34,763 bases of DNA from Nanobdellota archaeon (GTDB lineage: Archaea > Nanobdellota > Nanobdellia > Pacearchaeales > GW2011-AR1): assembly GCA_018898425.1 (NCBI GenBank), contig JAHIHG010000050.1, positions 1 to 34,763 on the forward strand, in the 5' to 3' direction. Of this stretch, positions 698-12,131 are shown piece by piece. Position 1 is the stretch's first letter, and each line of letters starts with the position of its first letter. The position numbers and the translations under genes are program-made. The notes below the pieces were generated by a model. It ran no database searches. It was not told where the DNA came from and was given only the letters and a program-made list of their open reading frames with translations.

Positions 698-3600
698 ATG
701 GGGATGAGGAAAAAGAGGATTAATGCAGTCTATCTTGATACAAACCAGTTTAAATTATTTAAATTTTTAAAAGTTAATTCTGCAGATTTTTCCAATTGGT
801 CTTCTTTAAAAGATATTTCTAAAAAATTAAAGATTTCGGAAAATGCTACAAAAAAATTAATTTCTTCTTTAAGAGAAAAAGAAGGCATTGCTTTAGATTC
901 AAAAACAGAAAAAAAAGGAGAAATGAAAATAAGAAAATATGGACTTGCTCCAGAAACATTGGGAATCTTAGTAAAATCAGAGAGAGACATACATAAAAAC
1001 AATAAGAATGGAAATCTTTTTTCTGCATTATATCTTGCAGAACCTTGTTTTGGAACAAAAGCTTTTGAAGAAAGGTATACTATGAAGGGGCTTGCCTTGG
1101 CTTTGGAAGTAAATGGCTTGGCTGGAAAAATACAAGAAGTTATTATTCAGGGAGGGGTAATTCCTCATCTTCCCCCATATTCTTCTAAAAGTTATGATTG
1201 GGATTTAAAATTTTTAGGACAAATTGACAAAGAAAAAACTAGATTTTCTGAGAAATTATTAGAAGATAAAATAGAAACAAGTTGGGAAAGAGAGTTTTAT
1301 GAAAAATTTATTCATAATTCAAAAAAAAGTAAAATAACCACTTTAACAGATGCTTTTAAAGCTGCAGAAAATCAACTTTCACCTTTAATGAATTCACTTC
1401 CAGAAGATACTGTTCTTAGAATCCAGTTAGGGGAAGAAGACAGAAAAAATATTGAACACTTGCAAGCAGCAAGAGTTCAGGAATGGGCTAAAGAAAAAGG
1501 AGAGAAAATTAATAAAATTAGGGATGAAATTATGAATGAATCTTATAAAACTTTTCAAGATTCATATATTTTTCTTGTTCAAAAAAGTTATTTGGAAAAA
1601 ACATTAAAAAATGAAAAAATTTTAAGAAAAATTAATGAAAAAAGAATTGATTTTAAAAAAAGGATTTTAAATAATTTTCAAGATTTTTTAATGGAAGTTA
1701 AAGAAGATTCAGAAATTGAAACATCTAATTTTTGGGAGGATCATCAAAAAATTTTAGGTTTAGACATCAATGAAATATTATATGGGGAAACAATTAAAGA
1801 AGATAAACACCAAATGGAAAATTTTGGAATTGAAAGAGCAATGAATTATGTTTCAAGATCGCAAAGAAAATCAAAAAACATAAAGCAAGGCATGAAAAAA
1901 CTAGAAAATTTACTCCAAAAAACTAAAGAAAAACAAGAAGATTTAAGCTCTAGATTAGAAGATTTAAATGAATCTGCTAGCTGGACAAAACAATTATTAG
2001 AATCTGGAAGAAAAACGATAACCTGGTTTACAAGGCAGTACCCTGTTTTTTCAGATGAAGTAGAATTAATATTTAAACAAGTAAAAGACAAATATACTCA
2101 ACATTTTTTTAATTGGAATATTTCTCAACCAACAGTTATTCATGTTTCTCCAAGAAAAAGAATTGAAATAGAAACAGGAGTTATAACTAATGTTTTATCT
2201 AATGAAAAAGATAAATTAGAAGTAGATTATAGTGTTGAATCTTATGAAAAGAAAAGAATGTTATTAATCCACAATATAAATCACATAACGTCAGATGGAA
2301 TTGCTCCAAATGCTATAAAAAAAGCAAAAGAATTAATGAATCATGAAAATATTGTTTTGAAAAAGCTATATGAAGAAGAACTAATTAAATTCCAACCAGA
2401 TATTCTTTTATTGGGGGGGCATCAAACAGGGGGTTTTAGGGTAATGCCTTGGTTTAAAGATTCTGAACAAATTATCCAGGGAGAATTTGTAGAAAACCAG
2501 AAAATAAGTTATTTAATTCATCTTCCAACACTTCAGTCAATTCCACGTTTAGAATGGTTAATTTCAAAAGGTTTTAAAAATTGGCACACAAAAAGATATC
2601 AATCTGGCCCCTATGCATCTGCAGCAATTATCCATACTGAAGATAAAGAAGGAGTTGGGAGATTTGGGATAATAAATAGTGCACAATTAGAAAAATTTGG
2701 AAAAAAAGCAGAAGAAATAGAAGTTTATAGAAAAGAACTTAAAAAAAATTTAAGTTCAGAAAATAGAAAAGAAATTTTTAAATTAATAAAAGAAAAAAAA
2801 GAAGAAGTAAAAATTAATTTTAAAAAAATAGAAGCTGCAGGAGATTTTCATCTTGGAGCTCCAGATTATCCGGGCAGATATTCAAAAGACCAGTTTATAG
2901 AAGCTATGCAATACTATCAAATAAAAAAAGGATTGCCAGAGATTATTTCATGGGATGAAATTCCGCATGGCTGTTTAGATTCTTTTGGAAGCGGTTCCAG
3001 ATATTTGGGGATGACTCCTGCCAAATTTAAAAGAAAAATTATAAATCCTATCTTGGAAAGTGATTTAAACCCAGAAGAAAAAGCCAGAGAAATAGCTAGA
3101 GAATCTCTAAGAAATCATAGGGCAATTACAATTCATAATCAAGCAGACCAAAAAGAGCTTTTTGCAGAAATGTTAAGACCTTATGCTGAGAAAGTTATTA
3201 AAAATGGTGGAAAATTAATTTTAACCAGCGGGAATCATGCTAACAATTCAGATAAAAAATCCGATGAAGCATTGGAATTAGCAAATCAATTTTCCACAGA
3301 ATATAGAGACAAAAATAAAGTAATTGCATTTTCTGGAAAAGGCAACCCTGTTGGAGTGGGTGCAATAAGATTAGATGGAGGACAAACTCTTTTTGTCATG
3401 CATAAATTTCCAGAAAGACAAGATGAAATTTATGGAATAATGACTCATTTAAGAAAAATGAATAATGATGCAGACATAGTTATTGCAGGGGACAGGCATC
3501 AAACAGGAGCAGGTTATGCTGATGGACATTTAATAGTGCTACACCCAGGGATGGAGCCAATAAATACATATGTTCCATTAATTGGAAAACCTGCTGGAGT

Positions 3601-3712
3601 TAGAGGTTTTAATAATATTTATTTTGACCCAAATAAAAGGGGAATATATGCAGTAGAATTTATATTAAATAATACTCTTGAAAAAATTGTAAAAGAAGAA
3701 AATATAATTTAA
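698..3712 (+). CDS. large multidomain protein: N-terminal winged-HTH, long Lys/Glu-rich coiled-coil region, C-terminal calcineurin-like metallophosphoesterase domain
   Basis: 1004-aa uninterrupted ORF. N-terminus: LKDISKKLKISENATKKLISSLREKEG (HTH-like). The middle ~300 aa is heptad-like and K/E-rich. The C-terminus carries MPP-like motifs AAGDFHLG (about 2840), SGNHAN (about 3230) and IAGDRHQTGAG (3485-3511). An earlier degenerate copy, LLLGGHQTGG, lies at 2409-2435. Confidence 0.75.
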   Translation: MGMRKKRINAVYLDTNQFKLFKFLKVNSADFSNWSSLKDISKKLKISENATKKLISSLREKEGIALDSKTEKKGEMKIRKYGLAPETLGILVKSERDIHKNNKNGNLFSALYLAEPCFGTKAFEERYTMKGLALALEVNGLAGKIQEVIIQGGVIPHLPPYSSKSYDWDLKFLGQIDKEKTRFSEKLLEDKIETSWEREFYEKFIHNSKKSKITTLTDAFKAAENQLSPLMNSLPEDTVLRIQLGEEDRKNIEHLQAARVQEWAKEKGEKINKIRDEIMNESYKTFQDSYIFLVQKSYLEKTLKNEKILRKINEKRIDFKKRILNNFQDFLMEVKEDSEIETSNFWEDHQKILGLDINEILYGETIKEDKHQMENFGIERAMNYVSRSQRKSKNIKQGMKKLENLLQKTKEKQEDLSSRLEDLNESASWTKQLLESGRKTITWFTRQYPVFSDEVELIFKQVKDKYTQHFFNWNISQPTVIHVSPRKRIEIETGVITNVLSNEKDKLEVDYSVESYEKKRMLLIHNINHITSDGIAPNAIKKAKELMNHENIVLKKLYEEELIKFQPDILLLGGHQTGGFRVMPWFKDSEQIIQGEFVENQKISYLIHLPTLQSIPRLEWLISKGFKNWHTKRYQSGPYASAAIIHTEDKEGVGRFGIINSAQLEKFGKKAEEIEVYRKELKKNLSSENRKEIFKLIKEKKEEVKINFKKIEAAGDFHLGAPDYPGRYSKDQFIEAMQYYQIKKGLPEIISWDEIPHGCLDSFGSGSRYLGMTPAKFKRKIINPILESDLNPEEKAREIARESLRNHRAITIHNQADQKELFAEMLRPYAEKVIKNGGKLILTSGNHANNSDKKSDEALELANQFSTEYRDKNKVIAFSGKGNPVGVGAIRLDGGQTLFVMHKFPERQDEIYGIMTHLRKMNNDADIVIAGDRHQTGAGYADGHLIVLHPGMEPINTYVPLIGKPAGVRGFNNIYFDPNKRGIYAVEFILNNTLEKIVKEENII

Positions 3713-4023: not shown

Positions 4024-5469
4024 ATTCCAGTTGATCCTGCTGGCGGCTGCGGCTCTCTGGTTTGCACTTAGACATGCAAGTTTCTTTGTTTCTTCGGAAG
4101 TAAGGGAGCGAACTGCTCAGTAACACGTAGCTAATCTACCCTTAAGTCAGAGATACCCTCGGGAAACTGAGGTTAATATCTGATAGAAGATATACCCTGG
4201 AATGATTTATCTTTTAAACTTGAGCTTAAGGATGAGGCTGCGGCGGATTAGGTTGTTGGCGGGGTAATAGCCCACCAAGCCGAAAATCCGTAAGGGCTCT
4301 TAGCGGAGAGGCCCTGAGAGGGAATCTGAGACACTATTCCCAGCCCCACGGGGTGCAGCAGTTAGGAATATTCTGCAATGCGCGAATGCGTGACAGATTG
4401 AACCAGAGTGTGTTTCTATTGAAATGCTTTTGTGAAATGCAAAAAGTTTCACGAATAAGGACTGGGTAAGACTAGTGCCAGCCGCCGCGGTAATACTAGC
4501 GGTCCAAGTCGCAGCCATTTTTATTGGGTCTAAAACATCCGTAGCTTGTCTAATAAGTTTCTTGTGAAATTTTATATCTCAAATATAAAGCGCGCAAGAA
4601 GTACTATTAAACTAGAGACTGGAAGACGTAAGAAGTATGTTCGAAGTAGCGGTAAAATGTTTTAATCTCGGACAGACTCACAATAGCGAAGGCATCTTAC
4701 GAGGACAGTTCTGACAGTAAGGGATGAAGGCTAGGGGCGCAAAACGGATTAGATACCCGTGTAGTCCTAGCAGTAAACACTGCACACTAAACATTAGTAC
4801 CTCCTCGAGAGGTATTAGTGCTGAAGGGAAGCCGAAGAGTGTGCTACCTGGGAAGTATAGCCGCAAGGCCGAAACTTAAAGGAATTGGCGGGGAGACACT
4901 ACAACAGGTGACGCGTGCGGTTCAATTAGACTATACACCGTGAACCTCACCAGGAGCGACAGCAGGATGAAGGTCAGTCTAAAGGGCTTACCTGACACGC
5001 TGAGAGGAGCTGCATGGCCGACGTCAGCCTGTGCCGTGAGGTGACCTGTTAAATCAGGTAACAGGCAAGACCCACATACATATTTGCCACGTGCACCATA
5101 TGTAGATCGCCTTGGCAACAAGGATGAAAGTGTGGGCTACGTTAGGTGAGTACAGCCCGAATCCCCTGGGCAACACGCGCGCGTCAATGGTGAATACAAC
5201 GGGATGCGACTCTGAAAAGAGAAGCTAATCTCTTAAAGTTCATCTCAGTCCAGATTGAGGTTTGCAACTCAGCCTCATGACGCTGGAATCTGTAGTAATC
5301 GTTTGTTATCAGCGAACGGTGAATACGTCACTGTCTCTTGCACACACTGCCCGTCAAACCAACCAAGTTATGTTATGGTGAAACTTTTCGAAGGAGAACT
5401 TTAGCATGACAAGGTAGGTTAAGTCGTCACAAGGTAACTGTAGGGGAACCTGCAGTTGGATCACCTCCT
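4024..5469 (+). rRNA. 16S rRNA (archaeal)
   Basis: Starts attccagttgatcctgctggcgg. Contains gtgccagccgccgcggtaata (about 4476-4497), gcacacactgcccgtca, and the 3' end ggatcacctcct (ends 5469). About 1446 nt with no insertion evident. Confidence 0.95.
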
Positions 5470-5596: not shown

Positions 5597-5706
5597 GGGC
5601 CTGTTGTCCAATGGTTTAAGATACTTCCCTTGCACACGACGCGAACTTGTTTGCGAAGTCATCGTCAAGATCGGAAGAGATCCGTGTTCGATTCACGGCA
5701 GGTCCA
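5597..5706 (+). tRNA. tRNA-Ala(UGC) with a 37-nt intron (5635-5671) at the canonical 37/38 position
   Basis: Acceptor gggcctg/caggtcc includes G3:U70. Anticodon stem cttcc/ggaag, loop c-t-TGC-a, T arm ccgtg-ttcgatt-cacgg, discriminator A. The intron folds into helix / 3-nt bulge / 4-bp helix / 3-nt bulge / helix. It sits in the 16S-23S spacer, as is typical for archaea. Confidence 0.9.
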
Positions 5707-5955: not shown

Positions 5956-6003
5956 AATAAGCAGTAGAAGAAATCCCACTTAAAAATAAATTCAGAATAA
6001 ATA
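5956..6003 (+). other. 5' strand of the pre-23S processing helix
   Basis: aataagcagtagaagaaat (5956-5974) is the exact reverse complement of 9601-9619. tcagaataaata (5992-6003) is the exact reverse complement of 9581-9592. Confidence 0.75.
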
Positions 6004-7879
6004 CTACTATTTATACTGTTAGATGGATAGCTTGGTTTTGGTTTTGATGAAAGACGTGGCAAGCTGCGATAAGCTTGGGGGAGCTGCATGCAAGCTTTGA
6101 TCCCAAGATTTCTGAATAACGCAGAGATGCGGAATTACGCCGGGAATTGAAACATCTTAGTACCGGCAGGAAAAGAAAACAATTAGTGATGCCCTTAGTA
6201 GCAGCGAGCGAAAAGGGTACAGGGCAAACTGAATCTTCTCTTGAAAGAGAGATAGAGATGTGGTGAGGAACAAAGACTAAGTCAATGATTCAAACTTTGC
6301 TGGAAAGCAAGACCTTAGAAGGTGATAGTCCTGTAGAAAAAATTGATATGTTATACCTCGAAAGAGTAGGGCTTCCTAGATTGGGGGTCTGAATATGGCA
6401 GGATTAACTGACCAACCCTAAATAAAACCAAAGTCCGATAGCGCACTAGTACCGCGAGGGAAAGCTGAAAAGTACTCTTAATAGAGAGTTAAAAGACTTG
6501 AAATCTAACAGTTACAGTTTGTTACTGATCTTACTGTTTACTCAGATAAGATTTGTAACGTACGTTTTGAAAAACGGGCCAGGGAGTTTTTCTATGTGGC
6601 AAGGCTAATCTTCTCTGAAGAGTAACCGAAGCGAAAGCAAGTATGAAAATGCATTAGTCACATGGAGAAGACCTGAAGCCAGATGATCTATTCATGGGCA
6701 AGGTGAAGTCTTTCGAAAGGAGGATGGAGGCCTGAACCGGTGTTATGAACATGTACTCGAATGACCTGTGAATAGGGGTGAAAAGCTTATCTAATCTGGC
6801 GATGGCTGGTTCCTACTGAAATATGCCTTCGTATAGTCTTGTTTAGTTTGTTAGCGGTGTAAAGTACGGATAAATCTTGCAGGAGCTAATGCTTACGGAG
6901 ATTTTTCCAACTCAGAAGCTGTTAATTGCTTAGAACAGGAAACAGGGTGTGTATGTAAGATACATTTCCGAGACCCGAACAAGGGAGACCAGAGTTAAGG
7001 TCCCAAAATTTATGCTAAGTGTATCAAAAGGTGTCTTGAACCTGAGACACTGGGGATGTAAGCTTAGAAGCAGCTATCATTTAAAGAAAGCGTAACAGCT
7101 CACCCATCGAGGTTCAGGGCCCTGAAAATGGACGGGGCTAAAGCATAATACCGATACTTTGGAGGCATTCATTAGAATGTTCTGGTAAGTAGGCGTGGTT
7201 TCTGCGCAGAAGGTTTTTCGTGAGAAAGGCTGGAGCGGGAACCAATGAGAATCCTGGCAATAGTAGGATGTGATTTTTCTGAGAATGAAAAATGTCGAAA
7301 GAGCAAGGTTTCCTCGGCAATATTTTTTAACCGAGGGTTAGTCAGCACCTAAGTCGTGCCTTAACTGAACACGACGATGGACAGCAGGTTAATATTCCTG
7401 CACTAATTGAATTTTATATAATAGGGTTTTGCTTCTGGATAAGTAAGCACTTGAGAAAGTGTTTTTATAAATAAATCTGTCGAGGGTAATCCTTAGACGC
7501 AGATGAATTTTTTGAACAAAATTGCTGATTCCAGGAGCCAGTGAAAAGACCTTATTCTTAATTTAATTAGCTGTACCCACAACCGACACTGGTGCTCTGG
7601 CTGAGTAGGCCAAGACATGAAAGGGAAAACCAATTAAGGGAATTCAGCAATTTAGTCCTGTAGCTTAGGCTTAAGGGATGTCTATCTTTGTGCGCTTCAG
7701 AAATGTGTGTGCATCGATAGATCTCAGTAACAAGGACGGCCCGACTGTTTACCAAAAACGTAGCCAAGTGCTAATCTGAAAAGACTTGTATACTTGGTGA
7801 GACCTGCCCAGTGGTGGTGTCTCAAACTCCTTTTCAAGGGAGCTAAGGTCCATTAAACGGCGGGGGTAACTATGACCCT

Positions 7880-8638
7880 CAATAAAGGGGGTATTTAAAT
7901 TTGGCTGTATGCTGGAAACTCCTGTTAAGTCTTTGGTACTCGACGTTTATCGTCAGTAAAAATCCAAAGAATAAGGACAATCAGCAGGAAACTAAAGGTT
8001 TATATATTTGACCTTCTATAAAAGGTCATGAATAAAAAACAATATGTGTATTATCTTACGGGGTTTATGGATGGAGAGAGTTGTTTTTGTATTGCTCTTA
8101 AAAACCAAAAATCTGCAAAAGTAAGATGGGTGCTTGATCCAATATTCCATGTAACACAAAATGCAATTAACAAAAAGATATTATATGATCTTCAAAAAAT
8201 GTTTAATTGTGGTGTTGTAATTAAGAAATATGGTCAGCTAAATACTATGCAGTTTGTAGTTCAAAGTAGAAATGAAATAATAGAAAAAATTATTCCCTTC
8301 TTCAAAAAATATCAATTGATAACAAAAAAGAAAGATTTTGAAATATTTGCAGAAGTTGTTGAAGCATTGAATCAACATAAACATAAAGATTTTAATGAAT
8401 TCAAAAAACTTCTTAAGAAAGTCTTTACAATGAATGGAGGAGGAAAACAAAGAAGATACAAACTTAAAGATGTGTTAGAATCTTTAGGATCCTCAGAGAC
8501 TATACGCCAAACACAATCCAAAAAATTGTGATGATATAGTCCGAACTGCATGGAGACATGCAGAGACTCACTCGCGTGAGTCCGCTGTTAATTAAATAAC
8601 AGTTAAGTAACTCTTTTTAGAGTGAAAGTAACAGAAAG
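7880..8638 (+). mobile_element. group I intron (candidate) in 23S domain IV, E. coli position about 1923, carrying a homing endonuclease ORF
   Basis: Exon text breaks after ...gaccct (7879) and resumes at cttaaggtagcg (8639). P1 pairs accct (7875-7879) with ggggt (7888-7892), with a U.G at the splice site. aag (7885-7887) can pair with exon-2 ctt (P10). The terminal nucleotide is G at 8638. gatatagtcc (8533-8542) matches the group I J8/7-P7 consensus. Nested hairpins lie at 7930-7970, and three 3' hairpins at 8546-8602. Confidence 0.75.
8028..8531 (+). CDS. single-motif LAGLIDADG homing endonuclease (I-CeuI/I-CreI-like, presumably homodimeric)
   Basis: 167 aa with one LAGLIDADG-type motif, YLTGFMDGES. 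LDPIFHVTQN and EKIIPFFKKY resemble the I-CeuI/I-CreI blocks (DPxFxVTQ, IPF...). The ORF lies entirely inside the 23S intron. Confidence 0.9.
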   Translation: MNKKQYVYYLTGFMDGESCFCIALKNQKSAKVRWVLDPIFHVTQNAINKKILYDLQKMFNCGVVIKKYGQLNTMQFVVQSRNEIIEKIIPFFKKYQLITKKKDFEIFAEVVEALNQHKHKDFNEFKKLLKKVFTMNGGGKQRRYKLKDVLESLGSSETIRQTQSKKL

Positions 8639-9580
8639 CTTAAGGTAGCGTAATACCTTGTCATTTGAATGATGACTTGCATGAATGGTTTAACGAGGTT
8701 GTCACTGTCCCTAATTGGAGCCTTCTGAAAATATTTTTCCGGTGCAAAGACCGGAGACACCTAGTGGGAAGCGAAGACCTTGTGGAACTTTACTGCAACT
8801 TGTTGTTGTAATTTTATGAAAAACGCATAGCATAGGTAGGAGCGTCGAAGCTGTCATTTCGGTGACAGTGGAGCGAACTTGTAATACTACCCATTTTTTA
8901 TAAGATTGCTTACTCTTTAGAGGACAGCAGCAGGCGGGCAGTTTGACTGGGGCGGTGCCCTGTCGAAAAGATATCGATAGGACCCAAAGACAAGCTCATC
9001 CAGCTTGGAAATCTGGAGTTGAGTGCGAAGGCAAAAGCTTGTCTGACTGTATTTTGAAAAGCAAGAAATGCAGGGGAGAAATCCGGGCTTAGTGAACCCA
9101 CATGCTCATTTAATAGGAGCTGTGTCTGATAGAAAAGTTACCCCAAGGATAATAAGCTTGTCGCCCCCGATAGTCCGAATTGACGGGGCGGTTTGGTATT
9201 TCGCTGTCGGCTCTTCCTATCCTGCGCGTGCAGAAGCGTGCAAGGGTGCCGGAGTTCACGTATTAAAAGGAATCGTTAGCTGGGTTAAGAACGTCGCGAG
9301 ACAGTTTGTATGATATCTACTAGGTGTGTTATTGTCTGAGTGGAACAAGTTAGTAGTACGAGAGGAACCTGACTTGGATGCCTCTGGTGAGCAGTTGTTA
9401 TATAGCAGGCTGCATAGCTACGCATTGTATGGATAAGAGCTGAATGCATCTAAGCTCGAAGCCATTCGCAAAACGAGACAATTAAGGCCGTCAAAGAAGA
9501 TGACGTTGATAGAGTTCTTGTGTAAGCACGAAGGTTCGCCGACGTGTTCAGCATAGAACAACTAAAAGCCTCACTTGTAT

Positions 9581-9619
9581 TATTTATTCTGATAAAGAGA
9601 ATTTCTTCTACTGCTTATT
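9581..9619 (+). other. 3' strand of the pre-23S processing helix
   Basis: tatttattctga (9581-9592) and atttcttctactgcttatt (9601-9619) are perfect complements of 5992-6003 and 5956-5974. Confidence 0.75.
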
Positions 9620-10537: not shown

Positions 10538-11212
10538 TTATTTAGTTATTCTAACAACCCCTGCTGCAAAAAATAAAAAAATAATTATGTTTAGCAAATA
10601 AATTGTAATTAAAATTCCAGGATTCCATGCAAAAGTCAGGGCTGCTAAAAAATTAAGCACCCATGCAATAAAACTAAAAATCATTGCTATTAAATAAAAT
10701 TTAAGAAACTTTCCTTTACTTCCTTTTGCGATATAATTATTATAACTTATTAAAATTAAAATTGCAAAAAGAATTATTTGCGAAAAAAACATAAAATAAA
10801 ATGTTTTCCAGATACAATCTAATCCAACAATAACAAAAGCCATTAAATAAAAAACAAGAACTTTTGAATTAATTAAAGAGGTAAAATATTCTTCTCCTGC
10901 TGATTCTATTTTTTTCCATAATAAACTATAAAGCAAAAAAAAACCACCCATTATTAAAAAATATTCAAAAATAAAAGTTGTTAAAACATGATAATTTTTG
11001 TTAAAAATAAAATATTTTAAATCAAAAAAATACCTTATAAAAAATCCAATCCCGTAAAAAAAGAATGCATTCCTAAAGTATCTTATGCCTTGGTGTTCAC
11101 TTAATTTAAATAATTTGTTTGTCTTAATTACAATTACAAAGCAACTTAAAATAATTATAAAAGCATAAATTAATTTAAGTGATTCCTTGCTCTGAATAAT
11201 CCATTCAATCAT
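10538..11212 (-). CDS. polytopic membrane protein, unknown function
   Basis: 224 aa with about 6-7 hydrophobic helices, rich in F/I/L/Y. Confidence 0.7.
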   Translation of the reverse strand: MIEWIIQSKESLKLIYAFIIILSCFVIVIKTNKLFKLSEHQGIRYFRNAFFFYGIGFFIRYFFDLKYFIFNKNYHVLTTFIFEYFLIMGGFFLLYSLLWKKIESAGEEYFTSLINSKVLVFYLMAFVIVGLDCIWKTFYFMFFSQIILFAILILISYNNYIAKGSKGKFLKFYLIAMIFSFIAWVLNFLAALTFAWNPGILITIYLLNIIIFLFFAAGVVRITK

Positions 11213-11642: not shown

Positions 11643-12131
11643 ATGGGAAAAGGGATGGAAAAAAATAGTGTAAATGAAAACATGCTTCAGGCAACAATAA
11701 GTTTTGCTATTTTTGCAATATTAATAATTGGAGGAGGTGCTTATTTTGTGTTTAATAAACCCTTAATAGGGCCTGTATTTTTGGGATTAAGCTTAGTTGG
11801 ATTAATATTTTTAAAATTTTTTAAGATAAAAATCAGATCAGTTTATCCAGACATAATTTTTGGGATAGTTGATAATGGAATCCTGCTTTTTGGGGTAATT
11901 TTAGGAGGAACATATGCAGGAATTGGAGGAGCAATAATTGGCGGAGCTGCAGGCAATGCCATAACAGATGGTTTAGGAGGTTTATCTGAAGGATATATGG
12001 CAGAAATATTAAGAAAAAAAAGAATCAAGAATGAAAGAACTTCGCTTTCAACTATGATTGGAAAAATGATGGGTTGTTTAATAGGAGCAGGTGTGGGATT
12101 AAGTTTAATTTGGTTGATTAGTTTGTTTTGA
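11643..12131 (+). CDS. Gly-rich membrane protein, unknown function
   Basis: 162 aa with four hydrophobic segments and a GGTYAGIGGAIIGGAAGNAITDGLGG stretch. Confidence 0.7.
   Translation: MGKGMEKNSVNENMLQATISFAIFAILIIGGGAYFVFNKPLIGPVFLGLSLVGLIFLKFFKIKIRSVYPDIIFGIVDNGILLFGVILGGTYAGIGGAIIGGAAGNAITDGLGGLSEGYMAEILRKKRIKNERTSLSTMIGKMMGCLIGAGVGLSLIWLISLF

Follow-up and report, generated by a model that had tools for sequence, protein, structure and literature searches.

The window (the whole stretch of 34,763 nucleotides of DNA that was analysed) comes from an archaeon of the DPANN type that is related to Pacearchaeota and Nanoarchaeota and is very AT-rich (approximately 27% GC). A single rRNA operon can be seen in it, where an Rfam scan places the SSU model at 4024-5469 and the archaeal LSU model at 5999-9585, with a tRNA-Ala gene between them. 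The 23S rRNA gene is interrupted on the forward strand by an insert of 759 nt (7880-8638), which contains an open reading frame (ORF). The rRNA on either side of the insert is intact, and the match to the LSU model amounts to 2041 bits.

At the 5′ boundary the exon text ends GGTAACTATGACCCT at position 7879, and at the 3′ boundary it restarts CTTAAGGTAGCG at position 8639. In comparison with the rrlH gene of E. coli, the T at 7879 corresponds to position 1923 and the C after it to position 1924, which makes the insertion site L1923, i.e., directly after U1923. The sequence alone leaves the junction uncertain by one base, because a C begins both the intron and the 3′ exon; it was set at 7879/7880 and 8638/8639 following the rules for group I introns (a U before the intron and a G at its end). 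The parts of the intron and the tRNA-Ala gene are collected in Table 1.

Table 1. Positions in the window of the tRNA-Ala gene and of the parts of the 23S rRNA intron
Feature	Position	Strand	Evidence or remark
tRNA-Ala(UGC) with 37-nt intron (5635-5671) at position 37/38	5597-5706	+	Rfam tRNA, 44.6 bits
Whole group I intron	7880-8638	+	Exon boundaries, RF00028 partial matches, covariation; 759 nt
P1, 5′ exon strand ACCCU	7875-7879	+	Pairs with 7888-7892; ends with U1923 at the 5′ splice site
Internal guide: AAG (P10 strand, 7885-7887), then GGGGU (P1 strand, 7888-7892)	7885-7892	+	
P3, 5′ strand UUUGGC	7900-7905	+	Partner 8506-8511
P4-P5 domain	7910-7986	+	Covariation in P4, P5, P5a; same helices in minimum-energy fold
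P4; P5	7910-14/7982-86; 7920-23/7974-77	+	
P5a; P5b	7930-36/7964-70; 7937-45/7951-58	+	
P6 (7987-89) and P6a (7992-97), 5′ strands	7987-7997	+	Partners 8490-92 and 8482-87
Possible archaeal TATA box, TTTATATA	7999-8006	+	29 nt ahead of the ATG of the endonuclease gene; inferred
Gene for a homing endonuclease of 167 aa with one LAGLIDADG motif (LTGFMDGES, residues 10-18)	8028-8531	+	ORF, Pfam
P7, 5′ strand GACUAUA	8498-8504	+	Partner 8535-8541, covariation
P3, 3′ strand GCCAAA	8506-8511	+	Covariation
P8 hairpin, 8512-17 with 8525-30	8512-8530	+	4/4 basal pairs changed on both sides
J8/7 (AUGA) and P7 3′ strand (UAUAGUC)	8531-8541	+	Match to RF00028 consensus GAUAUAGUC; covariation with 8498-8504
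Peripheral P9 hairpins	8546-8623	+	Four hairpins in fold
P9 (GAGA loop); P9a	8546-52/8557-63; 8565-71/8576-82	+	
P9b; P9c	~8584-8590/8597-8603; 8610-14/8619-23	+	
Conserved AGUAACA block and terminal guanosine G8638	8627-8638	+	30-intron comparison
3′ exon start CUU (C1924-U1926), P10 partner	8639-8641	+	Alignment

The secondary structure was examined in a comparative set of 30 complete L1923 introns, nine of which have archaeal-type exons and 21 bacterial-type exons. The covariation score of the proposed pairs is 0.388, compared with 0.159 in shuffled alignments (none of 500 shuffles reaches 0.388) and 0.07-0.13 in controls in which the partners were slid. Paired cells make up 85.6% of the total, as against 71.7% in shuffles, and changes on both sides are found in 43 of the 64 pairs. 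The helices that covary are P1, P3, P4, P5, P5a, P6/P6a, P7, P8 and P9. P3 is paired in 97.2% of cells and has both-side changes in five of its six pairs, P6 changes from GGA/UCC to GGG/CCC in L039, L040, L041 and L057, and P6a covaries widely. In P7 some pairs (G-C and C-G) never vary, and others change from A-U to G-C (17/13 sequences) or from U-A to C-G (three sequences); 16 of the 30 sequences leave position 8503 unpaired, as expected of the P7 bulge. This pattern would be compatible with a guanosine-binding site in P7, i.e., a G-C pair beside an unpaired base. Covariation extends to six of the seven pairs of P9. P9a is paired in 48.6% of cells in an alignment with misaligned columns, because loop lengths vary among the relatives and the alignment is unreliable there; this helix is taken from the fold of the window sequence only. 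The minimum-energy fold recovers P4 to P5b (z = -4.27) and shows the four P9 hairpins (z = -5.32). P2 is absent. The GTAACA sequence close to the 3′ end is retained in most of the 30 introns, and a search for a conserved pairing partner of the AGUAACA block (8627-8633) found none. Judged by this covariation, the conserved group I core, i.e., the P3-P7 pseudoknot together with the P4-P6 and P3-P8 stacks, is present and complete.

The first-pass annotation, which was made from the letters of the window, had read the insert as a group I intron with an endonuclease gene at L1923, and the site, the covariation and the LAGLIDADG_1 match described below bear this out. P1 (7875-7879 with 7888-7892) is as it had drawn it: the U.G pair at the splice site, here U7879.G7888, is found in 30/30 introns, as is the terminal G, here G8638, which it had also pointed out. 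P1 is paired in 98.7% of cells, and two of its pairs covary with the exon sequence, the exon/guide combinations being CCC/GGG in archaea, CGG/CCG in bacteria, CUC/GAG in L028 and CCG/CGG in L011 and L039. The proposed P10 (7885-7887 with 8639-8641) can form its 3 bp but is weak, being paired in 67.8% of cells, with G7887-C8639 as the only constant pair. Its identification of gatatagtcc (8533-8542) as the J8/7-P7 element agrees with the RF00028 consensus. The partner that had been assigned to P7, ggaaacta (7987-7994), has to be replaced: the strand that covaries with 8535-8541 is gactata (8498-8504), and the bases at 7987-7994 belong to P6 and J6/6a. The helices tctttgg/ccaaaga and tactcgacg/cgtcagta are real but correspond to P5a and P5b rather than to P4 and P5, and the P9-like hairpins do follow P7, but the fold has four of them (8546-8623) instead of three.

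The Rfam model for group I introns (RF00028), which had been suggested as a check, gives a divided answer. In a local E-value scan it matches 8405-8563 with E = 5e-8, with a weak second fragment (14.1 bits) in the P4-P6 region, but the main match scores 38.1 bits against a gathering threshold of 50 bits, and a group I match is absent from the gathering scan of the whole window with Rfam. The score is below the threshold because the ORF, of approximately 500 nt, splits the model; the formal failure at the curated threshold remains. The ORF-bearing L1923 intron of the relative L024 likewise scores below the threshold (42.5 bits), whereas the ORF-less L1931 intron of L024 passes the cut-off of 50 with 80.5 bits. 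When the ORF is deleted from the window intron, the remainder and the L024 L1931 intron share 76% column identity across P3-P9, and only the guide sequence has been retargeted.

The ORF lies within the loop of P6a and its 3′ end overlaps P6a′, P6′, J6/7, P7, P3′ and P8; it reads through into the ribozyme core in 29 of the 30 introns, and the C-terminal tail of the protein, SSET(I/V/A)R, is encoded by the J6/7-P7-P3′ core. The protein matches Pfam LAGLIDADG_1 (PF00961) over profile positions 1-101 of 102 with 75.4 bits (cut-off 23.1; E = 7.5e-21), in keeping with the earlier description, which gave it one LAGLIDADG motif and the blocks GFMDGES, DPIFHVTQ and IPFF. D15 and E17 are invariant in an alignment of eight sequences. 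E17 is aligned with the metal-binding D/E of the LAGLIDADG motif, i.e., the catalytic acidic position. Relatives among solved structures (PDB) reach E = 1e-28. By score, I-Vdi141I (68.3 bits, 6.8e-18) and 5gkk (67.7 bits) lie ahead of I-CeuI (2ex5; 55.8 bits), whose score is similar to those of single halves of I-OnuI-type enzymes. Thus, the earlier assignment to an I-CeuI family is correct as to the Pfam family and the rDNA site that are shared, but it is too narrow, and I-CeuI is not the closest solved relative of the protein. For L046, a bacterial L1923 homologue, there is no I-CeuI match at E <= 1e-8. In alignments the protein covers one half of two-domain enzymes and the full length of I-Vdi141I (169 aa), and 167 aa with one matched stretch is a length typical of homodimeric enzymes. 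By its sequence the ORF is an intact single-motif LAGLIDADG_1 homing-endonuclease gene, whose product would be active and is most likely a homodimer.

Archaea also have introns with a bulge-helix-bulge (BHB) at their boundaries, in which a helix of 4 bp lies between two 3-nt bulges that contain the splice sites, with further helices on the outside, and the intron of the tRNA-Ala gene served as the positive control for a scorer of this motif. ARAGORN found no tRNA here; the tRNA-Ala intron was read from the Rfam match and by manual reading. The scorer, which covers tRNA-like geometry only and 81 registers, gives 4/4/4 for this intron, a perfect BHB, as the first-pass annotation had held. At the boundaries of the 23S rRNA intron it gives 1/0/0 (H/h/h′) for the exact register, and the best of the 81 registers scores 5, which is under the mode of 7 for random pairs; no BHB is formed there, again as had been reported. 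A mirror-image geometry, with the bulge 5′ of the central helix, was dropped as it is not a motif recognised by the endonuclease.

Taken together, the insert at 7880-8638 is very probably a mobile intron of the group I class, located at L1923 in the 23S rRNA gene of a DPANN-type archaeon. In such an intron, the guide GGGGU would pair with the last five bases of the 5′ exon and set U1923 in the U.G wobble of P1. The core would fold into two stacks, P4-P5-P6 and P3-P7-P8, linked by the P3/P7 pseudoknot, and an external guanosine bound in P7 would attack the 5′ splice site. G8638 would then take the place of the external guanosine, and the freed 3′-OH of the exon, with the 3′ exon held weakly by the 3-bp P10, would attack the 3′ splice site to give ligated 23S rRNA. 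Self-splicing is suggested by the class to which the intron belongs. The endonuclease, most likely as a homodimer, would cut intron-less 23S rDNA near CTTAAGG (putative target GGTAACTATGACCCTCTTAAGGTAGCGTAATACC), and repair after the cut would copy the intron in, a process known as homing; both the endonuclease activity and the mobility are inferred.

An alternative with a modest share of the probability, and on the whole unlikely, is that the group I fold is real but that in the cell the intron depends on a protein for correct folding and splicing, either the LAGLIDADG product serving as a maturase or one from the host. Some organellar group I introns are known to be spliced with the help of LAGLIDADG maturases (also noted in PMC11270868), the overlap of the ORF with P6a′ to P8 in 29/30 introns ties the evolution of the protein to that of the RNA, and the intron has no P2 and a weak P10 in a host of low GC content. 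Against this, every core helix and joining region is conserved with covariation, no core defect is marked in the sequence, and a relative of the ribozyme, the L1931 intron of L024, lacks an ORF; therefore the scaffold persists without the protein. It is far less probable that the insert is a classical BHB intron, which the tRNA splicing endonuclease would remove before an RtcB-type ligase joined the exons, and in which the group I elements are relics. The host does employ BHB splicing (in tRNA-Ala), a decay of group I introns into BHB introns was proposed by Tocchini-Valentini et al., to judge from the citation in PMC6125680, and a BHB rRNA intron with a single-motif LAGLIDADG enzyme, Vdi141.L1927, lies four bases away (PMC2602781). 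The first-pass annotation had used the single motif to set the enzyme apart from those of archaeal BHB rRNA introns; this distinction fails, because I-Vdi141I is also single-motif and has the same target region (PMC2602781). What speaks against a BHB intron is the scoring of the boundaries, and also that the core has been kept by compensatory changes across 30 introns, with a P1 guide that tracks the exon.

There is an equally slight chance that the insert is not spliced at all, being either excised without ligation, leaving a fragmented 23S rRNA, or part of a dead copy of the operon. Intervening sequences that are excised but not ligated are possible in bacterial 23S genes (PMC11270868), and the operon is the only one visible in the window; the site belongs to the functionally essential region of helices 69/71, the rRNA on both sides has remained intact, and an RNase III-type spacer would have no need of a complete, covarying ribozyme. 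An assembly artefact, in which a bacterial intron has been joined onto an archaeal rRNA contig, is hardly credible. Related introns are common in metagenomic 23S genes of the bacterial type, but the guide GGGGU fits ACCCU, the exon of the archaeal type, rather than ACGGU, that of the bacterial type, and the same ORF and intron, with identical junctions, are found on 13 contigs from several samples. These are independent assemblies and the contig is therefore not a chimera; the same arrangement is also carried by five GTDB archaeal MAGs. Among the GTDB genomes searched the best relative has 85% protein identity, and a search for a named NCBI entry with the exact intron sequence found none.

Tentatively, and with rather less than even probability, one L1923 lineage of intron and endonuclease may have moved between ultra-small bacteria of the CPR type and DPANN archaea. 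In an unbootstrapped NJ tree the archaeal endonucleases form one cluster that is nested among the bacterial ones. According to such a history the guide would have been refitted to the archaeal exon (GGGGU for ACCCU) and a TATA-type promoter gained in the P6a loop, from which a leaderless endonuclease mRNA starting at the ATG could be made, while the SSET(I/V/A)R tail would have remained tied throughout to its coding sequence, the J6/7-P7-P3′ core. The TATA-like box occurs at identical spacing in L007, L008 and L010, close relatives that may share it by descent; in the window such motifs have a density of 1.75 per kb. Most of the bacterial ORFs begin further upstream within the intron.

Rather than a novel kind of element, the intron is a further example of a known one, because the same type of intron at the same rRNA position (LSU/1923) in archaea was described in 2018. 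The rarity that the first-pass annotation had assumed does not hold, as the catalogue of archaeal introns published in that year includes IB4 introns at LSU/1923 (PMC6125680). What is added to the archaeal group I introns, known since 2018, is one well-resolved example from a DPANN-type genome, with a full secondary structure backed by covariation in both archaeal and bacterial hosts; current views of intron biology are unchanged. The operon brings together two archaeal routes of intron loss, one ribozyme-based (in the 23S rRNA) and one protein-based (in the tRNA). For 23S phylogeny and probe design 7880-8638 should be masked, and annotations should not list the ORF among the genes of the cell. 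The 30 L1923 introns could serve as the seed of an improved covariance model for introns that are interrupted by ORFs and are missed by the general Rfam model when its threshold is applied.

Of the systems with which the intron can be compared, Ce.LSU.5 of the chloroplast 23S rRNA gene of Chlamydomonas eugametos, the source of I-CeuI, also belongs to group I and occupies the homologous position, L1923. The target of I-CeuI is the same conserved helix 69/71 stretch of rDNA, which reads TAACTATAACGGTCCTAAGGTAGCGAA in bacteria and organelles. I-CeuI, which is homodimeric, is a single-motif LAGLIDADG_1 protein like that of the window; the differences are the archaeal host and an exon that departs at 1918 and 1921-1922, with matching changes of the guide at 1921-1922. 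I-Vdi141I (PDB 3E54), the homodimeric single-motif enzyme of 169 aa from the Vulcanisaeta distributa intron Vdi141.L1927 (PMC2602781), is the solved structure that scores best, over a single stretch, against the window protein. Its intron also lies in an archaeal 23S rRNA gene, with a target region, CTGACTCTCTTAAGGTAGCC, four bases from L1923 (PMC2602781), but is of the archaeal endonuclease-spliced type, whereas the core of the window intron is that of group I and its boundaries lack a BHB.

Group I introns with single-domain LAGLIDADG genes also occur in the 23S rRNA of CPR bacteria (Tsurumaki et al. 2024, PMC11270868), and for I-ShaI homodimeric activity has been demonstrated (PMC11270868). 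The 21 L1923 introns with bacterial-type exons have the same ribozyme core and endonuclease family as the window intron; their guide, GCCGU, fits the exon ACGGU, whereas the window guide GGGGU fits ACCCU. Among the archaeal introns scanned, the TATA-like box was seen in close relatives. The nearest counterparts are the archaeal introns of Nawrocki, Jones and Eddy 2018 (NAR 46:7970, PMC6125680), who reported 39 archaeal group I introns, of which approximately ten, some from Pacearchaeota, are of subgroup IB4 and lie at LSU/1923. Many of the archaeal LSU/1923 IB4 introns are 690-760 nt long with LAGLIDADG genes, and because all of the archaeal LSU/1923 and LSU/1931 introns in that study were IB4 (PMC6125680), the window intron can by analogy be placed in the same subgroup. 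These introns, for example IB4.11, IB4.13, IB4.21 and IB4.28, share with it the domain of life, the gene and the position; the ORF-bearing ones, at 687-757 nt and with LAGLIDADG genes inside, resemble the 759-nt intron described here, and the hosts include Pacearchaeota, Micrarchaeota and other DPANN archaea (PMC6125680). Group I and BHB introns coexist in one organism there (PMC6125680), as they do here.

The 23S exon breaks off at GGTAACTATGACCCT (7879) and picks up again at CTTAAGGTAGCG (8639). In E. coli rrlH the corresponding junction lies between CGTAACTATAACGGT and CCTAAGGTAGCG, and the T preceding it is position 1923. Thus, the insert comprises 759 nt at L1923 (E. coli numbering), where the first-pass annotation had placed it. 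From sequence alone the junction could be drawn on either side of one C; the group I rules settle the register. The contig is cellular and DPANN-like archaeal. The surrounding genome has a GC content of about 27% and encodes a family B DNA polymerase, GatB/E, a class II aminoacyl-tRNA synthetase, a GatA-type amidase and a P-type ATPase. The 23S flanks find their closest counterparts in MAGs of Pacearchaeota, Nanoarchaeota and Woesearchaeota. Once the intron is subtracted, about 2828 nt of 23S rRNA remain, fewer than the 2987 positions of the archaeal model, and Rfam found no 5S rRNA anywhere in the window. Directly upstream of the operon is a 1004-aa ORF (698-3712) which, like three smaller ORFs (241-645, 10538-11212 and 11643-12131), has no Pfam match at 1e-5. 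The ORF at 24490-25647 matches Eco57I-like and N-6 DNA methylase domains, and is possibly part of a restriction-modification system.

The Rfam group I intron model (RF00028) matches the window at 8405-8563 (38.1 bits, E = 5e-8) and at 7910-8016 (14 bits), both below the 50-bit threshold because a 504-nt ORF parts the two halves of the core. For an independent check on the fold, relatives were gathered through the ORF (15 loci from GTDB genomes and 80 from metagenomes), and the 30 in which the whole intron is present precisely at L1923, nine with archaeal-type exons (GACCCT/CTTAAGG) and 21 with bacterial-type exons (AACGGT/CCTAAGG), formed the comparative set. The ORFs were cut out, the cores aligned, and pairs counted against the structure drawn on the window sequence. 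Paired cells amounted to 85.6%, compared with 71.7% for shuffled alignments; changes on both sides were seen at 43 of 64 pairs; and the covariation score was 0.388 versus 0.159 in shuffles (reached by none of 500), falling to 0.07-0.13 with partners slid by 1-3 columns. The most telling helix is P1, in which guide and exon occur as GGGGU/ACCCU, GCCGU/ACGGU, GGAGU/ACUCU and GCGGU/ACCGU. The U.G wobble at the 5' splice site and the terminal G are present in all 30 introns. Folded alone, the window sequence gives the arm made up of P4, P5, P5a and P5b with z = -4.27, and four hairpins on the 3' side with z = -5.32. In one related locus with two introns (L024), RF00028 scores the ORF-less L1931 intron at 80.5 bits versus 42.5 bits for the ORF-bearing L1923 intron. 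Without its ORF, the window intron is 76% identical to this L1931 intron from P3 to P9, and their guides differ as the two target sites demand (GCCUU for exon AAGGU in L024).

Features of the rRNA operon and intron, in window coordinates
Feature	Position	Strand	Remark
Archaeal SSU rRNA	4024-5469	+	Rfam
tRNA-Ala(UGC)	5597-5706	+	Rfam
Archaeal LSU rRNA	5999-9585	+	Rfam
P1	7875-79 / 7888-92
P10	7885-87 / 8639-41		weak
P3	7900-05 / 8506-11
P4	7910-14 / 7982-86
P5	7920-23 / 7974-77
P5a	7930-36 / 7964-70
P5b	7937-45 / 7951-58
P6	7987-89 / 8490-92
P6a	7992-97 / 8482-87
Endonuclease ORF	8028-8531	+	167 aa
J6/7	8493-97
P7	8498-8504 / 8535-41
P8	8512-17 / 8525-30
J8/7	8531-34
P9	8546-52 / 8557-63		GAGA loop
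P9a, P9b, P9c	extend to 8623
AGUAACA	8627-33		conserved block
Terminal G	8638

The intron has no P2. The P1, P10, terminal G and J8/7-P7 element of the first-pass annotation all recur in this structure; its P7 partner (7987-94) was misplaced, and its 'P4/P5-like' helices are in fact P5a and P5b. The AGUAACA block, a few bases ahead of the terminal G, recurs in the majority of the 30 introns, and no conserved pairing partner was found for it.

The alternative, an archaeal bulge-helix-bulge (BHB) intron, was assessed by scoring the canonical motif, in which each strand carries a 3-nt bulge on the 3' side of a central helix of 4 bp, with further helices flanking these. The 37-nt intron of the tRNA-Ala(UGC) gene (5635-5671, canonical position 37/38), a gene reported by Rfam but not by ARAGORN, scores 4/4/4, a perfect hBHBh'. 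For the 23S junctions the in-register score is 1/0/0, and none of 81 neighbouring registers exceeds 5 of 10, below the mode of 7 obtained with 2000 pairs of random positions. These scores speak strongly against a BHB intron in the 23S gene, and the contrast between the two inserts that had been noticed by eye is real. As a group I intron, the 23S insert would be expected from its class to leave the pre-rRNA by guanosine-initiated, two-step transesterification, and a homodimeric endonuclease would cleave intron-less alleles near CTTAAGG, resulting in homing. That splicing in vivo should require the encoded protein as a maturase seems rather improbable.

The endonuclease matches the whole Pfam LAGLIDADG_1 profile (7.5e-21) and has one motif, LTGFMDGES, of which D15 and E17 are invariant among relatives. 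The identical sequence occurs on 13 metagenome contigs; this exact sequence has no name and no NCBI record. Among solved relatives, halves of I-OnuI-type monomers score about 1e-28 for both stretches together, followed by I-Vdi141I (6.8e-18), 5gkk (1.1e-17) and I-CeuI (4.9e-14), and I-CeuI is absent from the matches of a bacterial L1923 homologue at 1e-8. Thus, the proposed I-CeuI family holds at the Pfam level only, I-Vdi141I and 5gkk being closer. I-Vdi141I, which belongs to an archaeal 23S intron at L1927, is a homodimer with a single motif and cuts CTC/TTAA/GG (PMC2602781); therefore, contrary to what had been supposed, the number of motifs does not tell archaeal group I and BHB introns apart.

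The ORF is sited in the P6a loop, and its 3' end (8482-8531) reads through P6a', P6', J6/7, P7, P3' and P8. Read-through of P6', J6/7, P7 and P3' occurs in 29 of the 30 L1923 introns, which leaves the protein with a conserved (G)SSET(I/V/A)R tail at its C-terminus; this tail is also found in an L1931 intron (L015) and in a further related locus (L012). Thus, the same bases code for the protein tail and the catalytic core. A TATA-like TTTATATA (7999-8006) precedes the endonuclease ATG by 29 nt, a spacing that recurs in the close archaeal relatives L007, L008 and L010 and, counting from the second ATG, in L023 and L024. It may be an archaeal TATA box from which a leaderless mRNA for the endonuclease would be made; common descent could also explain it, as could chance, since such motifs occur 1.75 times per kb in this AT-rich DNA.

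The L1923 intron with this endonuclease type is common in bacterial-type metagenome 23S genes (21 loci, L029-L100). In an unbootstrapped neighbour-joining tree the endonucleases of the nine archaeal introns fall together in a single cluster within the bacterial ones, a hint of transfer between domains. A Pacearchaeota relative (L007, intron 1352-2500) has an extra 387-nt insertion (2095-2481) in the P9b loop, holding two 57-aa ORFs (2105-2278 and 2283-2456). Twin introns at L1923 and L1931 occur in L024 (1353-2355) and L070 (1328-2488), separated by an 8-nt micro-exon, C(T/C)TAAGGT.

Group I introns with single-domain LAGLIDADG proteins are also abundant in the 23S genes of CPR bacteria (PMC11270868). 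In archaea, Nawrocki, Jones and Eddy (2018) found 39 group I introns, about 10 of them of type IB4 at LSU/1923, from Pacearchaeota, Micrarchaeota, Aenigmarchaeota, Thaumarchaeota and Aigarchaeota; of these, several carry LAGLIDADG genes and measure 687-757 nt, and some stand alongside BHB introns (PMC6125680). The published introns were missed by RF00028 alone (PMC6125680), as is the window intron, which is a further example of the archaeal L1923 group I introns already described.
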